Positions 2,146 through 24,912 are shown, counted from the stretch's first letter. The stretch is 25,936 nt of DNA from a virus (IMGVR_UViG_2778261085_000012:1-25936), one strand, 5' to 3'. Made by a program: numbers and translations. Notes: a model not told the origin generated them from the sequence alone.

Positions 2146-4121
2146 GCAAGCCTCACAATATAGTTAAATGCGATGTTTTTGACGGTGTTTTCCGCGTTGC
2201 CATAAGCGGCAATGGTAATGGTGTGTGTATGCGAACCAATAGCGAGCGTATGTGTATGCGCACCTATTGCTACTGTGTGAGTATGAGCTCCTGCGCTTAA
2301 TACGCGATTACTTGCTGTCTTGCTTGTGTTAGTTGCATGCATTCCACCACCGGTACCGGGAGTTTCTGCGTATGCTGAAGTATTGTTGTAAGCAAAGTTG
2401 TGTGTATGTGCTCCGGTGTTATTTGTGGATTTAGTTCCGTAATCAAACGACGATGTGGTTTTCGTCCCCAAATCCGTACTGGATGCGCTGGCGCTGTGGG
2501 TGTGCGATTTAATGCCGTCCTGTTCCTGAGACAATACGGCTCGACCACTGGCAGGTTTGCCCTTAATCGTCCAGCCACGCATATCAGGGATCACGCCTGA
2601 CGGATAAGCGGCTGCAAGTTTCGGGTATGCAGATTTGTCAAAAGTCTGCCCCTGCATCAGGGCATAACCAGACGGAACGGTATCTGATGGCCACGGGATT
2701 GGTGCGCCAGGCGGATAAAACTGCTCTGATGGCGTATAGAGTGAATAAACTGTACCGTCCGTTAACCCTTCCGGCTTATTAGCAGAATATGCTGGTGACG
2801 TATGAATAGTCACGCTGGCATTACTGGTATAATCCCATTGAATATTTACACCAGTCGCATAATTTTCGATTGCAACGTAAATATCGTAAGTATCACCAGA
2901 TGTATTGACCCAGGCAAAATTTGTAAACCCTGTCGATGTGCGCTGCCATAAAGCACCAGTAATCCCCTTCGGATTACCATTACCTGCACGCAAAACAAGT
3001 TCAGATATACCTGCCTGTTGAGGTGAACCGACGTTATATCCAGCGCCACCAATCAACGTAATTGAAACAACAGAACTCGCCTGTGGCATGGTTACCGTTG
3101 CTAATTTGAACCAACCAGCACCACCGCTGAATGACATAGTTGTTGAGTTAAGCGTACCAATATCTTTCGGCGTCAGTGTAATATCCGCTGAAAGGGCCTT
3201 ACCATTCACCTTACGGGCAGAAGGTACCCGACCATTCGCATTGTCATTAGCTGCTTTCACTGCTTTCGGTGTCGCGGTAAGCGTTTCAGATGTGCTGTTA
3301 GTCGCGCTGCTTAGCTGGACAATCCCTTTTTGTGCTGTCGTAGCGTCCTGTGCAGTGTATTTCCCGTTAGCAAGGTCATACGCGGCCTTTACCGCTTTTG
3401 GTGTTGCGGCGAGCGTTTCTGAATCGCTGTTGGTGGCGCTACTGAGCTGGACAAGGCCTTTCCGCGCTGTAGTGGCGTCCTGCGCAGTATATTTCCCGTT
3501 AGCAAGGTCATATGCTGCCTTTACCGCCTTTGGTGTTGCAGCCTGTGTTTCAGACACGCTGTTAGTGTCGCTACTGAGTTGAACAAAGCCTTTTGCGGTC
3601 AGCGAGGCGTCCGGGTGACGTCGTGACTGTTCATGCTCTTTCAGTTTGTCATCCACGTAATCCACTGTGGCCATCACCATGGTGTTATCCACGGTAAGTG
3701 CCACAGTGGCAGTGCTGGATACGGTCAGAATGGTGCGAAATGTTTGTGCACGTCCTGATCCTTCGGCAACGGTAGGCTTGTAACTTTCGGCAGTATTGCC
3801 CACCGCGATTAAATCGCCGTGCTCATCAAACACACCAATTTCCCTGATCCAGAATCCGCCCGTTTCTGGAGGAATAACCAGCTCTGCAATAATGCGGTTT
3901 TGATGTGTTGCGTCCAGGATGACGCGATTAACAGTATGTCGCCACACCTCATGCACCAGACGGGTCTGCTTACTGTCTGGTGTGGGCAATGTACCGCCAC
4001 CGTCGCCCACGGCCATATGAGTCAGGCGGACAGGCTTACCATCTGGCGCGGCTGCCTGAGCTAATTTTTTGGCACCCGTATCGGTGATAACGGTTTTAAA
4101 TTTACGTGTTGTGGTACTCAT
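2142..4121 (-). CDS. H: tail fibre protein (P2 gpH-like)
   Basis: 659 aa; N-terminus [26 protein letters not shown]...HEVWRH...IAELVIPPE matches the conserved baseplate-attachment end of P2 H; three approx. 44-aa shaft repeats; C-terminal HxH repeats (AHTHN, AHTHT, AHTHT, SHTHT). Confidence 0.9.
3246..3593 (-). repeat. three tandem approx. 132-bp in-frame coding repeats in the fibre shaft of H
   Basis: Peptide repeat KG(F/L/I)VQLSS(D/A)TNS.SET(Q/L)(A/T)[25 protein letters not shown] occurs three times; the nucleotide repeats are visible directly. Confidence 0.75.
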
Positions 4122-4123
4122 GC

Positions 4124-4654
4124 TTAATCGTCCGGATAAATGGTAATGACTTCGCCGTCGTAAGTTGCTGCCGCCGCGAAAATATCTCCCTGAATCTCCT
4201 GAATGATATTCAGCCCTGTCATGTGGCGGCTGACCGGGCGGGCATCAGCAATCAACCGCTCCATTTCCAGATACATTTCCTCCGTCACGCCACTGTCCAG
4301 TGTGCCGACTTCAACGGTAAATGTTCCCGGTTCTCCGCCGAACTCCCACCACTCAGACACGCGAATGAGGTATCCCAGCGGCTCAATGGCCCTGCGCAGT
4401 GCGCTGATGGTCCCTTTGTGTCGGTGTATCAGCCATGCATCACGAATAACCTGTCGCTTTGTCTCTTCCGGCCAGTTGCGATCCCAGCGGTCAACGGAAA
4501 ATGCCCAGGCGAGATAGGGCAGCAGATGCACCGGGCAGGTATCCGGCGACCACAGTGTGTTGAGGTCTACCGGAATGTCTGTAATGCGTGTTCCGACGGC
4601 TTCGGCACAACGCATGAAATTGCTGGCTGATGGTGGTAACAGTGAATTACTCAT
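4124..4654 (-). CDS. I: baseplate protein (P2 gpI-like)
   Basis: MSNSLLPP...[25 protein letters not shown]...[19 protein letters not shown] collinear with P2 I; start taken at the internal Met of track ORF 4124..4687; short overlap with the J 3' end. Confidence 0.8.
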
Positions 4655-16452: not shown

Positions 16453-16764
16453 TTACTCAGGAAATAACGCCCGGATATTCCCAGCCATCTGGCTGGTTAT
16501 TTTAGCCACTGGTGCAGACTGTGCTTCAAACTTTTTTGAGCTGATTTGTGTCACAGGTAACATCTCATCATCAGCCCATGCGGCCAGTCGGTAAGCCTCT
16601 GCCGGATTCGTCTTCAGAAGTGCCAGCCCGGCCAGAAAAGCCACGCGTTGGCCGCTTTTGCGGGCTTCTGGTGTAAGGCTGTCCAGCCAGGCGCATGCTT
16701 CTCCTTCGTTCTTGACGGCAGCTGGCTTCAGATAGAAACTTATCCGTCTGGTTGGTGTCGTCAT
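16453..16764 (-). CDS. parR: ParR-like centromere-binding protein (plasmid R1 ParR/StbB family)
   Basis: 103 aa; RRISFYLKP...AWLDSLTPEARKSGQRVAFLAGLALLKTNP parallels the R1 ParR N-terminal region; located immediately downstream of the ParM-like gene. Confidence 0.65.
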   Translation of the reverse strand: MTTPTRRISFYLKPAAVKNEGEACAWLDSLTPEARKSGQRVAFLAGLALLKTNPAEAYRLAAWADDEMLPVTQISSKKFEAQSAPVAKITSQMAGNIRALFPE

Positions 16765-16768
16765 TGGT

Positions 16769-17728
16769 TTACTCCTTGTTCATTGCGTACAGCCCATTAA
16801 CCAGAGCAAACTGTGGCACCCCGTCCGCGATGAAAGTCGCATTAACTCCGCAGGCTTCGCGGATAGCGGGTGCCACAATCTCCGCTCCTCCACCGACAAC
16901 CATCACCCGCCCGTAACCCGAAAAACCCGCCAGCGCGCGGATCACGCGTTGTTTCAGTGTTTCCTCCTTTTCACGAATAACTGCCATCAGGCTGGCGTAA
17001 TGCGCGTCATTGTGGATGTGCTGGCGCAGCCAGGCTTCATCGTGGCGATGTTCGATAATGGTACTGGCGATGTGGTGACTGGTGCGCATACCGTTGGTGG
17101 CCATCACCGACAGCACGGCATCGGCCATCAGAGAAACGCCTACGTGTGGATCGCAAAACACCTGGCTGATACCTGCCAGTTGCCCCTGAACCTTTGCCAC
17201 ATCCAGCGTGGTTCCGCCCAAATCCACAATCAGCAGGGATTCAAACGGACTCATGCCAGCCAGTGCTTTAAAGCCAGCCGGAATGGATTCAGGCATAACC
17301 CGCACGTTACGGATAGTGAATGCCTCGCCGTTCTGGTACTCCACCGGGCGCATGACGTTCGCTTTTTTGCGGTTGATGTTGGCCATGTCCGGCTGTGCGT
17401 TTGTGTCGAAATACTCGCTCAGTGGCAGGGTGACAACCACATCCACTTCCTGTGGTGTGATACCTGATTTGACCAGCGCATGATGAATGGCAATCACATT
17501 CACATCGCTGTACTGGTATTGCGTGTCAGTTGTCTGAACAAAGCGATCGCTGACCGGATCAAAATCATAGCGCACGCCATCAATCATGTAGTTTGCGGGT
17601 TGCGTGCCACCGAACGGCGCAGACCATTCCGACTTGAAGCTGTTCGGGCTGATGGCGTTGCGACGTTCGCCGTTCTCAGTCCATGCCAGCTTGATGTTGG
17701 TGGAGCCGTCGTCGATACAAATTTTCAT
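16769..17728 (-). CDS. parM: ParM/StbA-like actin-family ATPase
   Basis: 319 aa; MKICIDDGSTNIKLAW..., YSDVNVIAIHHAL, MPESIPAG, LIVDLGGTTLD and VMVVGGGAE are collinear with plasmid R1 ParM. Confidence 0.85.
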   Translation of the reverse strand: MKICIDDGSTNIKLAWTENGERRNAISPNSFKSEWSAPFGGTQPANYMIDGVRYDFDPVSDRFVQTTDTQYQYSDVNVIAIHHALVKSGITPQEVDVVVTLPLSEYFDTNAQPDMANINRKKANVMRPVEYQNGEAFTIRNVRVMPESIPAGFKALAGMSPFESLLIVDLGGTTLDVAKVQGQLAGISQVFCDPHVGVSLMADAVLSVMATNGMRTSHHIASTIIEHRHDEAWLRQHIHNDAHYASLMAVIREKEETLKQRVIRALAGFSGYGRVMVVGGGAEIVAPAIREACGVNATFIADGVPQFALVNGLYAMNKE

Positions 17729-17759: not shown

Positions 17760-17870
17760 TTTACGGGATTCTGAAATCCCGTTTTTGCCTGTTTTGTGTG
17801 CGCTTCATATATCGCGGCGCGTTTTTTGCTCATTTACGGGATTTGTGAATCCCGTTTCTGTCTGTTTTTT
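17760..17870. repeat. two copies of an approx. 40-bp repeat, each with a perfect hairpin, spaced about 71 bp
   Basis: TTTACGGGATTcTGAAATCCCGTTTtTGcCTGTTTT and TTTACGGGATTtGTGAATCCCGTTTcTGtCTGTTTT; copy 1 is in the A/parM intergenic region, copy 2 is inside the A 3' end. Confidence 0.7.
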
Positions 17871-20627
17871 GTTTCCACTGGTCAGGCCACCCCGCAGCAG
17901 GTCTGCTTTGCGGCGGGCGCGTTCAGTGGTTTCACTGATTCTCAGTGCGTGCTCTGCGTCGCGGATGGCGCGCAGCATGTCAGAAAGCACGGTAACGGGT
18001 GTTTTCATGGTGTTCTGGTCTTGCTGAAGTGTGGATGCCAGGCGTGCGGCGGCTTCGGGGTCTGATGCCCCCAGCTGTTCCAGATAGCTGGCGACCGGGT
18101 TATGGCGGATCTCCGTGCTGCTTACGCCGTGATTACGGCTCAGGCGCTGCCAGAGCTGCGTGATTCGGCTGTCCGGTCGGGTATCTGGTTTGCGTACAAT
18201 TTCAAATCCCTGCGGTGCAATGATGCTGCCGTCAACGTACAGACTGCCGCCCCGTAACAGGTGCAGCATCTGTTGTTCACCGATATGCAGGCCGAGAGAT
18301 TCGGCAGACTCCCGCCATTCTTTAGCGAGTAACTCGTGGTTATCAGGCAAAGGTCGCGGCTGTTTGCGGCTCTGTGTCCAGTTCTGCATTTCATCGCTGC
18401 TGTTTTTTGCCTGTTTGTCACGAAGCGAACGCATCAGCGCTCGGCGTTCGTGCCGTTTCAGTGAGCGCATCCATTCATTTACTTCAACGCCGTCAGGAAG
18501 CTGCGGCCACGGTGCTGGCCGTTCTTCCGGCTGTTCTGTTCCGTTGTTGCTCGTTTCCTGTACACGGGGACAGTTATTGCCACGAGTCCAAGGGGCGGCA
18601 GGGCCGCCCTGAAGGTCAAAACCATTTTCGCGGGCGCTGTCTTCCGTTTCCGGTTTACGTCTTACCAGTTTCCAGTTATCCGGATGCGTGCATACACGGG
18701 AGGATTCCCCGATGAGTGGTGACCAGATCCCGTAAATCTGTACGCTCTGTTCGCCGTAATCATTCAGCTCATCTGCGAGGTCGTAGGCGGTGCGAATCAG
18801 GTAGTCTTTGCGTGGAACAAGTACGCCGCCCTGTTTTTCAATGTAGGTGGCAAAACACCCGGCATCGGCGGCAGCGAGTACCGCATCCATTGCGTCATCT
18901 TTCAGTCGTTGCGGGCCTTCCGGGTTGCGTGCCATCTGGCTGGCAAGGCGGCGCAGTTCACGCCACACCTGACGGGAGGGGATGCCAAAGAACTGGAACT
19001 GGCGGACCCGATGAAGGCGCGCCCAGCCGATGGCGCGCTCCACACTCTCGGCCATTGATTTTCCGGTTTCGTGGTCAACGCGTGGCTTGCCCGTTTTCGG
19101 GTCGATGCCATCCACGGCGCGGCTGTCCAGGTTCTTTCCGATGTAGGTCGCGATATAGCTGGTTGGTGTGCCTTTTGAGCCGTCGACATACTCCGCCTTA
19201 AAGCGCGGAGTAATATCATTGCCCAGCTCGTGGCGGTCTTCCTGAATGGCAATATCGCGGGTGATGGCCACGATGCTGTCGATTTCTTCCGGATGAGCAA
19301 AGACCATCATATGCCAGTGCACGGTGCCGTCATGGTGAGGCTCCACCGTGCGGATGCCATACCAGCGCAGACCGTCGCGGTTCAGTTTTTTGCGGACTGC
19401 CGCAAAAAACGTGTTAACCAGGTAATCGCTGGAGTCGCGCATGGTGGCCCCGTTCCATTTGGGATTCGGATTACCGTTCTCTGTTGTGGCGTGGTATTTT
19501 GACGGGCAGGTGACAGTCAGAAACACCGCTCTGTCGCCACGGGCTTCGGCCAGAAGTTCCAGCCCCTTCATGGTGGCCATCATTTCTGCCTTACGGTGAA
19601 CCGGGTTACTTACTCCCGCGTAATACACTGTCTCGAGATCAATCGTGAACCCGTCTTCGTTTTCCAGCATGAAACTTTTCAGGAAATCGCGTGTTTTCTC
19701 GCGCTGCGCGCGAAACTCGCTTAATGCGTCCTGACTCAGATAGGGCGATGTTTTTCTGGAAACCAGACAGGCGGCGCGGAGTTGTTCTTCCCGCCACTCG
19801 CAACGTAACAGCCACAGTTTGCGTTTCCACCATTCCGCACAGGTCAGGCGAAGGATTGCACCCGGCAGCAGCTCCGTGTCCGGTTCGTTCCTCCGGTCTT
19901 TGTCTGTTGTCAGTGCGTCATAATGTGGAGGCATGGCGTGCAGGTGTAACGCCATGCGGGCCAGCATCTGATACGCCTTCAGCGTTACATCCATGGTCAG
20001 CTCGCCATCGGTCGCGCCAAAGCCATCGCAGAGTTTTTCGAAAGTGCTGCTGAACATCGCCGCCGTCATGGTGGCCAGCGTCTGTATCTGGTGTTTGTTG
20101 AGCTGCGGCAGGTAAAGCAAATCATCCAGGCGTTCGCGTCCGGCAAGGGAGCGATAACCCGGTGTCAGCCAGCGGTGGTCGGTGCGGTCCAGACGTTCGA
20201 ATATTTTGCGCAGGGTTCCGCGTGCATAGCGTTCCGCCTGCCAGCTCTTTTTGCCTTTCCGGCGATCGGCTTCCTGTTTTTTGCGCAGGAAGGAGAGGTG
20301 GCGAATAAGCGGATCGCGCAGATAGGACGGCAGCAGGCGCAGCGAGGCCATGGCTTCATCCACCGCGCCGCGTGCCTGTTTTCTGGCGTCTCCTGCCAGT
20401 GTGATGGTTTTGTCCTGTTTTTCCTGTGCGTCCAGGTTTTTATTAATCAGGTTGCCCAGCGGCGTGGCGGAGAACGCCGCATCAGCCATTTCCTGGCGGC
20501 GCTCGTTCTCTACCCGGTAGGCATCCAGCCAGGAGGAAAGCGCGGATTTAGGAGCGGGGATCCCCGTTCCTTCACGCCCCACTGCGTGGCGCGGTTGTTG
20601 CCAGTCCCTGATGTACTCTGCCGTCAT
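17805..20627 (-). CDS. A: replication initiation endonuclease A (rolling-circle, P2 gpA-like)
   Basis: 940 aa; conserved core ...LTVTCPSKYH...WYGIRTVEPHHDGTVHWHMMVF...YIATYIGKNLD...; longer than P2 A (about 760 aa as remembered). Confidence 0.9.
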   Translation of the reverse strand: MTAEYIRDWQQPRHAVGREGTGIPAPKSALSSWLDAYRVENERRQEMADAAFSATPLGNLINKNLDAQEKQDKTITLAGDARKQARGAVDEAMASLRLLPSYLRDPLIRHLSFLRKKQEADRRKGKKSWQAERYARGTLRKIFERLDRTDHRWLTPGYRSLAGRERLDDLLYLPQLNKHQIQTLATMTAAMFSSTFEKLCDGFGATDGELTMDVTLKAYQMLARMALHLHAMPPHYDALTTDKDRRNEPDTELLPGAILRLTCAEWWKRKLWLLRCEWREEQLRAACLVSRKTSPYLSQDALSEFRAQREKTRDFLKSFMLENEDGFTIDLETVYYAGVSNPVHRKAEMMATMKGLELLAEARGDRAVFLTVTCPSKYHATTENGNPNPKWNGATMRDSSDYLVNTFFAAVRKKLNRDGLRWYGIRTVEPHHDGTVHWHMMVFAHPEEIDSIVAITRDIAIQEDRHELGNDITPRFKAEYVDGSKGTPTSYIATYIGKNLDSRAVDGIDPKTGKPRVDHETGKSMAESVERAIGWARLHRVRQFQFFGIPSRQVWRELRRLASQMARNPEGPQRLKDDAMDAVLAAADAGCFATYIEKQGGVLVPRKDYLIRTAYDLADELNDYGEQSVQIYGIWSPLIGESSRVCTHPDNWKLVRRKPETEDSARENGFDLQGGPAAPWTRGNNCPRVQETSNNGTEQPEERPAPWPQLPDGVEVNEWMRSLKRHERRALMRSLRDKQAKNSSDEMQNWTQSRKQPRPLPDNHELLAKEWRESAESLGLHIGEQQMLHLLRGGSLYVDGSIIAPQGFEIVRKPDTRPDSRITQLWQRLSRNHGVSSTEIRHNPVASYLEQLGASDPEAAARLASTLQQDQNTMKTPVTVLSDMLRAIRDAEHALRISETTERARRKADLLRGGLTSGNKKQTETGFTNPVNEQKTRRDI

Positions 20628-20633
20628 AGTGAT

Positions 20634-20999
20634 TTACTTCGTCATGCCATTCAGGGTGTCGCGGCAGACTGTAGCCAGCCGCTGAATTTCCAGCACGGTG
20701 TCTTCTGTGTCGGTATGGCGATGTGTGATGCGGATGCTGTCGGCAATCACATCGACGATTGCAGAGGATGGGCGCTGGTAAATGCCAATAACGGACGGGG
20801 TGCCACCTTCAATGCGGTAAAGCCTGTAATTTCCCTCGTGGCTGTCAATCATGTAGCGACCATCAATAACAATCTTTCCGTCAGCGAGCTGCGGTACAGG
20901 CAGGGATTTCAGGTACATGTCATAACGATCACGCACGCGAGCGGCAAGATCACGCTCTGTGTTGAGCAGGTATTCAAGAAAGTCGTTGGCGAGAATCAT
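20634..20999 (-). CDS. hypothetical early protein (121 aa), coupled to A
   Basis: Stop 7 nt upstream of the A start codon, same strand; no recognisable family. Confidence 0.5.
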   Translation of the reverse strand: MILANDFLEYLLNTERDLAARVRDRYDMYLKSLPVPQLADGKIVIDGRYMIDSHEGNYRLYRIEGGTPSVIGIYQRPSSAIVDVIADSIRITHRHTDTEDTVLEIQRLATVCRDTLNGMTK

Positions 21000-21071
21000 T
21001 GCGGCAATCCTCTTGTTACAGATGTGCGAAGGCCTCCCGCCGCAAGGTGCAGGAAAGGCCCGGAACAGGAA

Positions 21072-21302
21072 TTAATGGAGTTTGTTTTGCTGCTGGATGA
21101 GCTGTTGAAGCTCGTGCAGATCATCCGCCAGATAGCTGAAAACAGAGGCGGAATAAATGTTTGATAGTGCGTGGCTGCGCTCATGCAACATATTGATGTG
21201 CATGATTTGCGCGACGCGTGTTGCGCGAAAAAGTCTGCGGTTGATTTCGCTGCGGATGTGAATACGCTCAGCGCGGGCGCGCTGTTGCATGCGGTTTGCC
21301 AT
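21072..21302 (-). CDS. hypothetical basic protein (76 aa)
   Basis: ORF downstream of the structured intergenic region, same strand as A; GAGG about 9 nt upstream of the start; overlaps long spurious ORFs, so uncertain. Confidence 0.3.
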   Translation of the reverse strand: MANRMQQRARAERIHIRSEINRRLFRATRVAQIMHINMLHERSHALSNIYSASVFSYLADDLHELQQLIQQQNKLH

Positions 21303-21486
21303 GACGTGGCCTCGTGTATAGTAAGTTTTGAAAACTCACCATCCAGAGTTGAGAATCTCGGGGTGGCGAGACGTACGGGGTTCTCAACACCGGCTACACA
21401 CGATCCCGGCCCGACCGAAGTCGGCCCCGTACGCCCCGCCATAATTCTGACGCGAAAAAGACGTGGCAATACAGTACGCACAAAAA

Positions 21487-21502
21487 AACCGCTGGCGCGG
21501 TT
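21487..21502 (-). terminator. candidate intrinsic terminator (minus strand) inside the early operon
   Basis: On the minus strand: AACCGC gcca GCGGTT followed by T7; short 6-bp GC-rich stem. Confidence 0.35.
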
Positions 21503-21599
21503 GTGCGCGTGTGTAGTCAGCGGGTTGAGAATCCCGGCACCCGTTTTATGAGGTGCAGCGGAAATGTAACCCGACTCAACGAGCGCTGGCAAGCGGTTT

Positions 21600-21627
21600 T
21601 TGTGTTGCGTGCTGAAGTATGTATAAT
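21600..21627 (+). promoter_or_regulatory. sigma70-type promoter for the antisense cargo gene
   Basis: TTGTGT - 16 nt - TATAAT, with TG immediately upstream of the -10; 60 nt upstream of the ATG at 21689. Confidence 0.55.
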
Positions 21628-21688
21628 CGCGGCGCAAAAATGGAATGCGCCGAAGGATAGCGGCGTTTATTAACAATGGAGGTTGTTT

Positions 21689-22156
21689 ATGCCTGTTGCT
21701 ATGGAGCAAGCAGACAAGAAGATTTTTTTCCATCTGTGGTACAGCTACTGGCTGGAAGAGATGGTTTTCATACTCAACAACAAGGCCGCTTTTGTGCTGC
21801 GCTCTGGAGCCTTGATTGCTGCGGTGTTGTCTTTTCTTCTGATTGAGTTCCCTGCCCTGATGAGTCTTTGCGGACTGGTGTTTTTTGGTTTTTCCTGGTT
21901 TTGCAGCAAGTGTGAATTCGTCGCCGAACTGGCGTGCTGGCAGAAACAGAGCTATCTGCGTCTGATTACGCAAAGGGATTTTATGACCACTGAACGCCTC
22001 ACTGAGCGCATTCTGCATCTGGAAGAAACGAACAGCGCATACATGAAAGCGATTGTCAGGCCCGCAAAAAACAAAGCGAGTGCATCTGTTGGGTTGTCTG
22101 CCAGCGAACATTTGCGTTACTCCGAAAGGTTAATTTGCTGGTTGTGCAGTTTCTGA
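21689..22156 (+). CDS. predicted membrane protein (155 aa) encoded antisense within the early operon (moron)
   Basis: Strong RBS GGAGG with 6-nt spacer; own promoter; hydrophobic stretch AFVLRSGALIAAVLSFLLIEFPALMSLCGLVFFGFSWF (about 2 TM helices); opposite orientation to all flanking early genes. Confidence 0.65.
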   Translation: MPVAMEQADKKIFFHLWYSYWLEEMVFILNNKAAFVLRSGALIAAVLSFLLIEFPALMSLCGLVFFGFSWFCSKCEFVAELACWQKQSYLRLITQRDFMTTERLTERILHLEETNSAYMKAIVRPAKNKASASVGLSASEHLRYSERLICWLCSF

Positions 22157-22221: not shown

Positions 22222-22488
22222 TCATGCTCTGGCTTCCTTCAGTAGCTGGTTAAACATGTGAGTAAGTGGATTGCTACACCCGAACGGCATCGGGTTTACG
22301 TGGTAAGAAGCCTGGCCTCCTGTTTTGCGAGCGCGACCACCTGTGCTGCGGTTTGTTCTGATGACTAAGCCGCCGCGCCAAAGTTGGCGTAACTCAGCAT
22401 TAATGGCTGTGGTTGGAGTATTCAGTGCTGCGGCGATCTCTCCGCCGCTACACCCCGGATGAGTAGCGATGTAGTCCAGAATGGTCAT
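22222..22488 (-). CDS. winged-helix DNA-binding early protein (FaeA-like)
   Basis: 88 aa; TILDYIATHPGCSGGEIAAALNTPTTAINAELRQLWRGGLV resembles FaeA/PapI-like wHTH proteins. Confidence 0.55.
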   Translation of the reverse strand: MTILDYIATHPGCSGGEIAAALNTPTTAINAELRQLWRGGLVIRTNRSTGGRARKTGGQASYHVNPMPFGCSNPLTHMFNQLLKEARA

Positions 22489-22688
22489 CTACGTGGCTCC
22501 TGTACTTGTCGGATAAGATTCACCCGCGCCACGTTGGTGGCGCAGAAATAAGTGCCGTCAGTGAGGTAGATGTGGTGTGCATCCTTTTCCGAACGATGTT
22601 TGTCGATAGTGGTAATCAGGCGTTCGTCGACCTCGTATTCGCGCCCTCTGGAGGTAAAGCGAACGACGGAAAAATGCTTAATTGCCAT
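22485..22688 (-). CDS. hypothetical early protein (67 aa)
   Basis: Stop overlaps the next gene's start; same strand as the early operon. Confidence 0.5.
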   Translation of the reverse strand: MAIKHFSVVRFTSRGREYEVDERLITTIDKHRSEKDAHHIYLTDGTYFCATNVARVNLIRQVQEPRR

Positions 22689-22711
22689 TGCGCCCCTTTT
22701 GTCCAGTAACC

Positions 22712-23122
22712 CTATGCGTTAAATACGGCACGTTGCGCGTCATCAATGAATACAGCTTGAGAGCGTTCTATCAGGCGGAGATTTGTCAGAAGCGCTGATT
22801 CCCTTATGGGGTGAGGAGTGATCAGGTATTTGTTCTGTAATCCGGCGATAATGGTGTATCGCTGTGGCTCCGAGCCAATAGTGTAAATAAGGCGTCCGGT
22901 GTCAGATAAATCCAGTCCGGTGACTGGTTTAGTTTTGAGAAGCGCAAGTTCCACACCCTGTTCTTCGATGATTTTGGCAGCTTCTGCCGTGACTTTTGCG
23001 ACTATCATTGTGTGGGTTGCGACGTCCATGTGAGCATTGGCCACGGCTTTTTTCGCTACTTCGTTTTCTGTCTTTGAAATTTCTTTCAGTGCTCTGATGA
23101 TACCTTCTTCTTTTGCGTGCAT
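22712..23122 (-). CDS. hypothetical early protein (136 aa)
   Basis: ORF in the early operon, correct strand and spacing; family not recognised. Confidence 0.55.
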   Translation of the reverse strand: MHAKEEGIIRALKEISKTENEVAKKAVANAHMDVATHTMIVAKVTAEAAKIIEEQGVELALLKTKPVTGLDLSDTGRLIYTIGSEPQRYTIIAGLQNKYLITPHPIRESALLTNLRLIERSQAVFIDDAQRAVFNA

Positions 23123-23211
23123 TTTTGTATCTCCGTTATTTGCGTGTGCGAATACCTCCGTTAATACGGATGGTTTTCACGTTTTCTTATTTAATTTGAT
23201 GCTTTATTTGT

Positions 23212-23319
23212 ATCGTTATTCACCAGTGAAAAAGCGTTCAATCTTTTTTACTGAATGAATAATTCGCATAATCCCAATGGCGCAGGCCACCGAAATAATC
23301 AGAACAAGCCATGAGATAA
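23212..23319 (-). CDS. candidate 35-aa hydrophobic peptide (not in ORF track)
   Basis: Read by eye: MSIFISWLVLIISVACAIGIMRIIHSVKKIERFFTGE; single TM then basic tail; GGGG about 8-11 nt upstream; starts a few nt after the preceding gene's stop. Confidence 0.3.
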
Positions 23320-23325
23320 ATATAC

Positions 23326-23568
23326 TCATGCAATATTCCCCAGCTTATACGGTTCAATATGTTCCCCGCATTCTGCGGCACAGATCAGCTCGGAAAGTTC
23401 GTTAAGTGCATCCAGATCATCAGCGTAAAAAGCCACGTCATACAGACTCCGGATTGCCCTGGTCAATGAGTCACGGGCTGCACGTTCAGCATGAGCGCCT
23501 GATGCACTTAAGCGAAAATAAAAACGCTCAAGTGCTTTGTTAATGAGAGTTTTATATTCTTTGCCCAT
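23326..23568 (-). CDS. hypothetical early protein (80 aa)
   Basis: ORF in the early operon; acidic protein, no recognised family. Confidence 0.55.
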   Translation of the reverse strand: MGKEYKTLINKALERFYFRLSASGAHAERAARDSLTRAIRSLYDVAFYADDLDALNELSELICAAECGEHIEPYKLGNIA

Positions 23569-23579
23569 CGCAACGCCCT

Positions 23580-23867
23580 TTAATCTGCTTTCTGAATTTC
23601 AGTTTCTGAATCCATACAAATAATTTCGATATAGGGTTCATCGCCATTAGCCAGGCGTGCCTTTTCAGCTTCACTAATGATTTCTCGTACGGTCTGGTAC
23701 GGAAGTTCCACAAGCAGTCGCGTGCCGTTCAGATAAACGTAAGTGGCTTCGTCGGCTCCGTTTTTACCCGCCGGAGCCACTCCATCAATAGCGGATGCGC
23801 GTAATAACAGTTCACCGCGAAAATCAATAAAACGGATAAATACACCTTGTGCATGCTCTTTGGTCAT
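23580..23867 (-). CDS. hypothetical early protein (about 96 aa)
   Basis: Start taken at the internal MTKEHAQ, directly after the upstream gene's stop; track ORF extends to 23927. Confidence 0.55.
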   Translation of the reverse strand: MTKEHAQGVFIRFIDFRGELLLRASAIDGVAPAGKNGADEATYVYLNGTRLLVELPYQTVREIISEAEKARLANGDEPYIEIICMDSETEIQKAD

Positions 23868-23877
23868 AAAGCACCTG

Positions 23878-24216
23878 TTATAAATCAGCCCGTTTAATAA
23901 AACTTTGCCCGCGAAGCAGACGATCAACCGTGCGAAGTGCTTCGTATAATGTGAAATCCTGTCCGAAGTGATTGTCGCCGCAGCTCAATGCAAAAATGCG
24001 GTTTCCGGTAAACGGATTGCGTGGGCATTTGTGGACCACGATTCCAGCTTTCTCAATCAGCCAGGTATGCTCGCCGATTTGTTTTACAGCGTGGCCATCC
24101 GGTGTTGCGTGTGTTTCGCTCAGGCTGTAGCGGATGTTGCTGCGTGATGCGCTGGTAGCGAAACGGTTAGCTTGGCGTTCCGTTTCGGTGCGAAAATTAC
24201 GGCGTTGCTTCAGCAT
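23878..24216 (-). CDS. hypothetical early protein (112 aa)
   Basis: Second gene of the early operon; basic N-terminus; family not recognised. Confidence 0.55.
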   Translation of the reverse strand: MLKQRRNFRTETERQANRFATSASRSNIRYSLSETHATPDGHAVKQIGEHTWLIEKAGIVVHKCPRNPFTGNRIFALSCGDNHFGQDFTLYEALRTVDRLLRGQSFIKRADL

Positions 24217-24230
24217 AAAATGACACCTCG

Positions 24231-24509
24231 TTATTTTGTCATCTGCACGTATTTCTCTGCGTTTCTGATGGTTTTCAGGAAAATTGCGAAGAGATTTACT
24301 GTACGTTTTGAGTTTTTTTCTTCTTGGTTGATGGGAAGGGCTGCTCTGTCAGCCTGCCTTTTCACTGCATTAACAGTTTGATTGGTACGCTTCGCGTAAT
24401 CTTTCAGGCTTTCTTCGAGTACCGGTAATCCATGCTCATCGCGGTATGGGTAGAACGCCGCCAAACGCTCAAAATCCGCTTGCTCGTATGTGTTCAAGAG
24501 CTTTGTCAT
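24231..24509 (-). CDS. cox: Cox-like early regulator/excisionase (first gene of the early operon)
   Basis: 92 aa; position equals P2 cox; C-terminal half YAKRTNQTVNAVKRQADRAALPI fits the Cox-type HTH pattern (P2 Cox FAKLIGKSTGAVRRMIDKGKLPV). Confidence 0.55.
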   Translation of the reverse strand: MTKLLNTYEQADFERLAAFYPYRDEHGLPVLEESLKDYAKRTNQTVNAVKRQADRAALPINQEEKNSKRTVNLFAIFLKTIRNAEKYVQMTK

Positions 24510-24600
24510 GATGTGATAACCTGTTCAGTCTGTGGTTATTTGTTGCTAAAAGTCGTCTCTAGGCGACTTTTAGGGTTAATTTAGTCGTCTGGAGACCACC
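24510..24600. promoter_or_regulatory. immunity switch region with divergent promoters and operator repeats
   Basis: Direct repeats AGTCGTCT (about 24551 and 24583) plus inverted repeat AAAAGTCG...CGACTTTT between the divergent cox-like and C genes; RBS GGAG before the C start. Confidence 0.5.
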
Positions 24601-24912
24601 ATGTCAAGTGGGTACGAAAAAAAACTGAAAGAGATACGGAAAAGTGAAGGGTTAACTCAAGCTGAGTTTGCAGATGTTACTGGGATAAATCTCGGAACTA
24701 TAAAGAATTATGAGAGCGGTAAAAGAGAGGTTGGTTTAAGCGTTGTTGATCGCGTAATTAATTCTAAGGATTTCGAAAAATACACTATATGGCTTATGAC
24801 GGGAAAAACAAATGAGGCTGCTGGGCAGATCAGTCCCTCTCTCTCCCCTGATGGGCCAGAAAACACATCGTCTTTTCAAAAATCCCGCAAGACTGGTACA
24901 CAGCCCGGCTAA
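24601..24912 (+). CDS. C: immunity repressor, P2 C-type (HTH)
   Basis: 103 aa; LKEIRKSEGLTQAEFADVTGINLGTIKNYESGKR...KYTIWLMTGK parallels P2 C (VLMRKSEYLSRQQLADLTGVPYGTLSYYESG...KYTLWFMT). Confidence 0.85.
   Translation: MSSGYEKKLKEIRKSEGLTQAEFADVTGINLGTIKNYESGKREVGLSVVDRVINSKDFEKYTIWLMTGKTNEAAGQISPSLSPDGPENTSSFQKSRKTGTQPG

Follow-up and report, generated by a model that had tools for sequence, protein, structure and literature searches.

Why should a temperate phage carry a gene for a predicted membrane protein on the strand opposite to every gene that flanks it? The question is raised by positions 21,600 to 22,156 of IMGVR_UViG_2778261085_000012:1-25936, a viral stretch of 25,936 nucleotides that was analyzed whole and is referred to here as the window. 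The window is a P2-like prophage related to P88 and Xuanwuvirus, and the locus holds a 155-amino-acid (aa) open reading frame (ORF) on the plus strand, inside an early operon that is read from the minus strand. We find it to be an uncharacterized accessory gene of the prophage, belonging to a familiar class (antisense in a lytic operon) and representing no new principle. The function that we tentatively favor, which we hold to be possible if somewhat short of probable, is that of a membrane-anchored exclusion or abortive-infection protein that is expressed from the prophage and silenced by lytic read-through.

The plus-strand reading frame is a protein-coding gene

The elements of the locus, including a competing reading frame on the other strand, are the following (PGAP, Prokaryotic Genome Annotation Pipeline; pN/pS, ratio of nonsynonymous to synonymous polymorphism; TM, transmembrane).

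21689-22156, plus strand: coding sequence of 155 aa with its ATG at 21689 (WP_001143720.1, a PGAP call), a member of phrog_6315
21600-21627, plus strand: putative sigma-70 promoter TTGTGT-16-TATAAT, with the -35 element at 21600-21605 (3/6) and the -10 element at 21622-21627 (6/6)
21628-21688, plus strand: 5' leader, including the Shine-Dalgarno sequence GGAGG at 21678-21682 and a 6-nt spacer to the ATG
21610-22156, strand not assigned: inserted cassette consisting of the -10 element, the leader and the ORF, with left and right boundaries taken from alignments
21788-21913, plus strand: region encoding a predicted TM hairpin (aa ~34-54 and ~57-75, turn EFP), from hydropathy and the family profile
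20996-22111, minus strand: spurious ORF of 371 aa in the codon-aligned antisense frame, judged by pN/pS, Rfam overlap and the lack of PGAP annotation

Six E. coli alleles, 90-100% identical to one another, were used to determine which strand codes, with pN/pS computed per frame. Variable sites fall at the first, second and third codon positions of the plus frame 19, 12 and 38 times, respectively, and pN/pS is 0.20 for this frame versus 1.32 for the overlapping 371-aa ORF. The minus-strand ORF crosses two Rfam RNA genes, isrK and C4, and carries no PGAP annotation; the plus-strand ORF is annotated as WP_001143720.1. Based upon the per-frame pN/pS and the overlap with the Rfam RNAs, the minus-strand ORF is an artefact, and the plus-strand ORF is a genuine protein-coding gene under purifying selection. 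The preliminary description of this locus had allowed for a minus-strand gene assigned to the wrong strand, and it is the plus frame that codes. That the true gene should nonetheless lie on the minus strand, or that the region should be non-coding, is highly improbable. Such a reading could point to the 371-aa ORF itself, which covers the region, and to a 221-aa minus-strand coding sequence across the homologous stretch in the record of Yersinia phage vB_YenM_42.18. Against it stand the pN/pS values, the isrK and C4 RNAs that lie under the minus-strand ORF, and a plus-frame protein that is 25-37% identical across genera with equal length and an equal TM pattern. Codon-aligned antisense frames often remain open by chance.

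Two public records contain what are likely annotation errors at loci of this kind. In Yersinia phage vB_YenM_42.18 (locus L004 of our set, 3803-4468), the 221-aa 'gp08' has been called on the wrong strand over the true homologue, a plus-strand ORF of 156 aa that is 29% identical to the window protein and unannotated in the record. In locus L002 (2551-2814), an 'ash family protein' pseudogene has been called over the isrK and C4 RNA genes. Errors such as these hide genes of this type.

The preliminary description had the gene driven by a near-consensus promoter and a strong ribosome-binding site. The two hexamers, the GGAGG with its 6-nt spacer and the 155-aa ORF were all located in the sequence. 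To call the promoter "near-consensus" is an overstatement. The -10 element is a perfect TATAAT; the -35 element matches TTGACA at only three of six positions, with a spacer of 16 and a total of 9/12. The site thus fell below the threshold of a consensus promoter scan that requires 4/6 matches per hexamer, and was not listed by it. Promoter-like sites occur in the region at the level of chance (four found versus 3.5 expected, with shuffled sequence yielding as many), so the motif alone is not evidence. Some weight is given to the promoter by the conservation of TATAAT, the 5' untranslated region (UTR) and GGAGG in all six E. coli alleles. The -35 element itself lies within DNA common to phages that lack the ORF, whose homology to the window ends near 21610. 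Upstream of the distant homologues, the scan found no standard sigma-70 site.

Regulation of the cassette promoter by the phage repressor CI or by LexA was rejected, as neither a copy of the CI operator nor a LexA (SOS) box was found near it; the palindromic operator of the cI/cox switch region is at 24550-24569 and has no copy near the cassette. The absence of both fits constitutive expression. That the E. coli 5' UTR might form a structured leader or act as a riboswitch was likewise rejected, since its fold is no stabler than those of shuffled sequences (z = -0.40).

A mobile cassette with conserved antisense placement

A prophage that shares 99.9-100% identity with the one in the window occurs in E. 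coli O103:H2 12009 and in several O145 strains, integrated beside btuC. Its early operon runs on the minus strand from a Cox-like gene through several small genes to gpA, and the following genes frame the cassette (HTH, helix-turn-helix).

24601-24912, plus strand: CI-type HTH repressor gene, at the right end of the window together with the integrase gene (plus strand)
24231-24509, minus strand: Cox-like gene, the first of the early operon
22222-22488, minus strand: gene for an 88-aa MarR-like winged-helix protein, the upstream early gene, convergent with the cassette (stop codons 65 bp apart)
17805-20627, minus strand: gpA replication endonuclease gene, the end of the early operon

The strand opposition claimed earlier is borne out: the MarR-like gene, isrK, C4, a 76-aa ORF and gpA are all on the minus strand, and the gene in question is on the plus strand. 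It had also been called a moron, which comparison between genomes supports. Of 5,426 complete E. coli genomes, 12 carry the cassette of ~540 bp and 1,181 carry the flanking isrK/C4 DNA with its promoter. On the left, homology with ORF-less relatives (L002, phage PhiR44_2; L005) stops at ~21610, which places the -35 element in shared DNA and makes the -10 element, leader and ORF the insert. On the right, homology stops at the stop codon in L003 and L008, which represent a second E. coli P2-like backbone. There the cassette again adjoins isrK and is bordered on the far side by a DUF4406 gene, the 3' end of which runs over the ORF stop; this different neighbor sets the right boundary at the end of the ORF. 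The ORF is therefore present or absent between homologous phage genomes with sharp edges, and its homologues occur in P2-like, 186-like and Mu-like prophages alike, between which they have moved. Together, these findings support calling it a mobile accessory gene, or moron in the comparative sense, of a P2-like prophage. No copies of the cassette were found on plasmids.

An isolated, intact cassette with isrK and part of C4 was observed between insertion sequence remnants in E. coli MDK9L1 (NZ_CP081333; L007, 2944-3845). This degraded prophage fragment sits in a defense island with a type I restriction-modification enzyme, an M48 peptidase, an HNH protein and the Hhe anti-phage protein. The survival of an intact ORF in such a remnant gives a weak hint of an anti-phage role.

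The preliminary description had noted that the position of the gene forces transcription to converge with the early operon. The gene was located in its relatives among P2/186-like and Mu-like prophages.

Two E. coli P2-like backbones: antisense to the lytic operon
Third E. coli-type allele (37% identity only): antisense, next to DUF4406 and preceded by the same isrK-promoter DNA
Yersinia phage: between gp07 and gpB, antisense
Serratia P2-like prophages: antisense
Enterobacter 186-like prophages: between cII (CP76) and fil, antisense
Regiella: adjoining fil, antisense
Sodalis: antisense
Klebsiella remnant: antisense
Degraded 186-like remnant: antisense
Pectobacterium: between cox and a cI-type repressor gene, antisense
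Salmonella and Edwardsiella Mu-like prophage: inside the late operon, between terminase-region genes, antisense

In all 11 genomic settings the gene runs antisense to the lytic operon around it, and it is co-directional with cI and int wherever these are visible. Converging transcription is thus a conserved property of the family and not an accident of one phage.

This placement has a well-known precedent. In phage lambda, sieB (34482-35036, plus strand) is annotated in the pL operon between two minus-strand genes, ral and N, so that the "classic architecture" invoked in the preliminary description is real. SieB is expressed from the prophage, and its product aborts superinfecting phages. The gene described here resembles sieB of lambda and P22 (PF14163) in that both lie antisense in an early operon and encode small inner-membrane proteins (predicted here) of similar size (184 aa for SieB, 155 aa for this protein); they differ in that SieB belongs to lambdoid phages and this family to P2-like or Mu-like ones. 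Its constant antisense position in a lytic operon, which sieB shares, makes the gene a candidate for an anti-phage role. Antisense genes with transcription of their own are described as typical accessory loci of prophages (Owen et al. 2020, PMC7067206). Among them, STMMW_20121 of Salmonella prophage ST64B and the antisense RNA STnc6030 of BTP1 resemble the present gene in lying antisense to lytic genes; they are independently transcribed and recognized as having accessory or exclusion functions (PMC7067206), although their sequences are unrelated and STnc6030 acts as an RNA, whereas here a protein is under selection. The presence or absence of the gene among P2-like prophages also recalls old, tin, Z/fun and similar cargo genes of P2-like phages, which in P2 lie outside the early operon; the present cassette differs in lying antisense within the early operon, or within the late operon in the Mu-like prophages. 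Accessory genes of P2-like phages are often anti-phage.

It is hypothesized that in the lysogen, with the early operon repressed, the promoter of the cassette would drive the gene, in the direction shared with cI and int. The membrane protein would then act at the cytoplasmic face to keep other phages from infecting productively, as an exclusion or abortive-infection effector in the style of SieB, RexB or SLATT, possibly by oligomerizing and permeabilizing the membrane upon a phage cue. When the resident phage enters lytic growth, strong early transcription (late transcription in the Mu-like prophages) would cross the cassette in antisense and shut it off, which would spare the lytic growth of the resident phage itself.

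The same placement could serve a different end, namely modulation of the resident phage's own lysis-lysogeny switch, either in cis or by action on the phage. Transcription of the cassette would converge and interfere with the early operon and could reach cI and int, or the protein might tune induction through the neighboring isrK/C4 module. The consistent orientation of the gene, convergent with lytic transcription and co-directional with cI and int, would suit such a role, as would the location of the Pectobacterium cassette between cox and a cI-type repressor gene, the back-to-back arrangement of the E. coli cassette with the isrK promoter, and the absence of any intrinsic terminator downstream of the ORF in a terminator scan. 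The gene is, however, missing from ~99% of otherwise homologous isrK-bearing loci, and hence dispensable, and it moves among phages of unrelated type and among positions within them, one of which, in a Mu-like late operon, has no switch nearby. Strong purifying selection on the protein, with conserved polar motifs that are predicted to be cytoplasmic, means that the protein matters and not just the transcript. Control of the cassette leader by isrK or C4 was rejected as well, since the complementarity of either RNA to the 5' UTR is no better than that of shuffled sequences. We consider an effect on the switch unlikely, whether exerted through converging transcription or through the isrK/C4 module.

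The predicted membrane protein and its possible anti-phage role

The window protein matches a single family, phrog_6315, over its full length (E = 1.8e-27; residues 9-154 aligned with positions 4-148 of the 152-position profile); the function of phrog_6315 is unannotated. Word-seeded and exhaustive HMMER searches of billions of proteins yielded a protein family of only ~45 clusters of 151-166 aa, apart from a few fragments, all labeled 'hypothetical' and none with a Pfam domain. Every named source belongs to the Enterobacterales: Escherichia, Salmonella, Klebsiella, Enterobacter, Phytobacter, Cedecea, Serratia, Yersinia, Pectobacterium, Brenneria, Sodalis, Edwardsiella and Regiella. That no family could be recognized in the preliminary description agrees with these searches, as nothing in Pfam, NCBIfam or PADLOC scored above threshold for the window protein or for 35 relatives. 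Sub-threshold matches to ATP-synt_I, HemY_N and holins reflect the TM hairpin alone. Neither the protein accessions nor the PHROG are mentioned in any paper found, and nothing specific was found in the literature on antisense morons of P2-like phages.

The estimate of about two TM helices was upheld. Hydropathy places two neighboring hydrophobic segments at aa ~34-54 and ~57-75, and the same double peak occurs across 35 family members. The turn between them (EFP, ~3 residues) contains no lysine or arginine, and the flanks carry on average 3.8 and 12.3 of these residues in the 35 members. This distribution predicts a topology with both termini inside and almost nothing in the periplasm. The most conserved polar motifs, LEEFDS, NPARN and an A..A..Q..RY..L helix, all fall in the predicted cytoplasmic part. 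An AlphaFold2 model is all-helical (predicted local distance difference test score 84.5, predicted template modeling score 0.74), with hairpin helices at residues 2-50 and 55-94 followed by three short helices. The product is accordingly predicted to be a small inner-membrane protein with a two-helix hairpin, which would anchor an N-terminal amphipathic helix and a conserved helical domain of ~80 residues, both in the cytoplasm.

A class II holin or pinholin was tried as an identity for the protein and rejected: only two single-member holin matches, both sub-threshold (E = 0.04-0.1), occur among the 35 members; the gene is in the early region, antisense and away from the lysis genes; and a protein of 155 aa with a large cytoplasmic domain is unlike holins.

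A membrane protein encoded by a prophage accessory gene could also be a lysogenic-conversion factor that serves host fitness in ways unrelated to phages, such as envelope physiology, stress tolerance or colonization, by acting on a host membrane or cytoplasmic protein. The accessory architecture and the predicted membrane location are both compatible with this, and the gene occurs in Shiga toxin-producing E. coli O103 and O145 as well as in plant- and insect-associated Enterobacterales. These hosts, however, come from very different niches with no common environment. The protein has no signal peptide, exposes almost nothing outside the cytoplasm (the turn of ~3 residues), and does not resemble known virulence or fitness families. 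A role of this type appears quite improbable.

In its build the protein recalls SLATT proteins, which are membrane effectors of anti-phage systems such as DRT10 and predicted pore-formers (bioRxiv 10.64898/2026.04.29.721553). The likeness is one of build, consisting of an N-terminal helix, a tight hairpin of two TM helices (2TM) and C-terminal cytoplasmic helices, as predicted here. In a fold search of the viral structure library BFVD, nine of the top 30 matches were SLATT-annotated 2TM effectors. The window protein matched none of the SLATT hidden Markov models (HMMs; Pfam SLATT_1-6 and SLATT_fungal, NCBIfam, PADLOC), and among the 35 members there were one SLATT_4 match (E = 0.11) and one SLATT_fungal match (E = 0.15), both sub-threshold. 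A SMODS, SLOG or reverse-transcriptase partner, the association expected of a SLATT effector, lies near the gene in none of the contexts examined. The resemblance is only suggestive, and is best taken as a lead on a possible working mode and not as a family assignment.

Outside of E. coli, the 2TM gene usually has a small hydrophilic ORF of 23-58 aa a few bases upstream. This ORF has a conserved FHxLHKPxPP-like, or (L/I)HKP, motif and an acidic tail, and has no Pfam match; it was found in the Yersinia, Serratia, Enterobacter, Pectobacterium, Sodalis, Salmonella and Edwardsiella cassettes. The 5' edge of this ancestral form of the cassette carries, in addition, a structured element.

L010 5899-5994; L014 5896-5994; L004 3867-3986; L017 5812-5988; L020 5831-5986; L026 3883-3996: small (L/I)HKP ORF
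L004 3757-3800, also in L014, L017, L020, L022, L026 and L027: structured element, 140-290 nt upstream of the 2TM gene

The element has two hairpins (GCCGGG/CCCGGC and CCNNG/CNNGG) that overlap each other, with TGTGGTA after them. Across seven lineages, Watson-Crick pairing holds in all 75 base-pair cells; compensatory double changes occur in three pairs, and one-sided changes in none. Candidates for its role are an operator, an attenuator, a small RNA (sRNA) terminator or a recombination site. The E. coli cassette of the window has neither the small ORF nor the hairpin element, and no (L/I)HKP peptide occurs nearby in any frame.

The small product may act together with the membrane protein or regulate it. 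Such a pair raises the idea of an addiction module resembling a toxin-antitoxin system, in which the 2TM protein would be a membrane toxin neutralized in the ancestral cassette by the small acidic (L/I)HKP protein; the pair would stabilize the prophage or be triggered upon loss of the antidote. This would account for conservation of the upstream ORF with its FHxLHKPxPP motif across seven non-E. coli genera, and the 2TM hairpin does resemble those of pore-forming effectors. However, the E. coli subfamily has lost the small ORF and yet keeps an intact 2TM gene under purifying selection, which is hard to reconcile with an unneutralized toxin, and with its 155 aa and large cytoplasmic domain the protein does not look like known small membrane toxins. 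The idea is therefore one to which we attach little probability.

In its broadest form, the exclusion or abortive-infection reading would make the family an unrecognized, compact anti-phage module: a SLATT-like 2TM effector, ancestrally accompanied by the (L/I)HKP protein and the 5' hairpin element, that hops between temperate phage types and uses its antisense placement as control logic. We regard this wider proposal as speculative and, taken as a whole, unlikely. If true, the module would be on in the lysogen and silenced by the phage's own lytic transcription, which would tell self from non-self with no need for a dedicated immunity protein.

Several results weigh against an exclusion or abortive-infection protein. 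The defense models of PADLOC, Pfam and NCBIfam gave zero matches, fold searches of the PDB returned only generic helical hairpins, and the SLATT fold matches are individually non-significant (E = 0.1-1.6, TM-scores 0.27-0.52). Homology to SieB was rejected, with an hhalign probability of 0.6% between the family and lambda SieB; PF14163, against which lambda SieB itself scores 1e-29, gave no match for the window protein at E up to 10 and is absent from the families listed for the 35 members. A nucleotide-signaling partner (SMODS, SLOG or reverse transcriptase) was not found nearby in any examined context. The cassette has no G+C signature distinct from the surrounding early region (47.9% for the ORF, 47.2% for 22222-24509, 52.6% for the whole window), the -35 element is weak, the ORF lacks a downstream terminator, and plus-strand transcription from the cassette promoter in lysogens is something we infer from sequence. 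The defense-island remnant is a single case.

Should the protein exclude or abort other phages, it would be a small, one- or two-gene addition to the prophage defense repertoire, and one that current defense-finding HMM sets miss, having no recognizable domain. It would also offer a clean test case for the old idea that antisense placement in a lytic operon couples the expression of an accessory gene to lysogeny and turns it off at induction.

The neighboring isrK/C4 module and other features of the window

The cassette stands back-to-back with a second set of elements, a neighbor that the preliminary description did not mention.

21592-21563, minus strand: PisrK-like promoter TTGCCA-18-TACATT, divergent from the cassette, its -35 element 7 bp from the cassette -35 element
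21482-21556, minus strand: isrK-like RNA (Rfam, 61.8 bits)
21359-21446, minus strand: C4 antisense RNA (Rfam, 76.8 bits)
21072-21302, minus strand: 76-aa ORF of the 'Derepression' family (Pfam PF25738)

The PisrK-like promoter is invariant in eight loci. Pairing of C4 with the leader of the 76-aa ORF is predicted at -51 kcal/mol versus -37 +/- 4.3 in shuffled sequences, none of 300 being as low, and visual inspection shows GGGAUUCUCAACCC in isrK to be complementary to that C4 segment, GGUGUUGAGAACCCC, as well. Promoter, isrK, C4 and the 76-aa ORF (21072-21592) together read as an antirepressor module like that of P1 immI, set within a P2-like early operon. Its logic is that of the P1 immI c4/ant system and of the Gifsy-1 isrK-orf45-anrP operon (PMC4825925); in Gifsy-1, the isrK promoter drives the sRNA and, via read-through, the antirepressor operon (PMC4825925).

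Further features were observed elsewhere in the window. Between gpA and the portal gene, genes for a ParM-like protein (319 aa) and a partition/stability protein (103 aa) lie on the minus strand at 16453-17728, and hint that the prophage might be maintained in a plasmid-like way, or that the P2 variable region carries them as cargo. A full-length Rfam match to IS009 is present on the minus strand at 693-891 (184.9 bits, gathering score 117). The cI/cox switch contains a probable immunity operator at 24546-24599. It is made up of the palindrome CTAAAAGTCGTCT/AGGCGACTTTTAG and, at a distance of 32 bp, another AGTCGTCT repeat, and has no second copy in the window.

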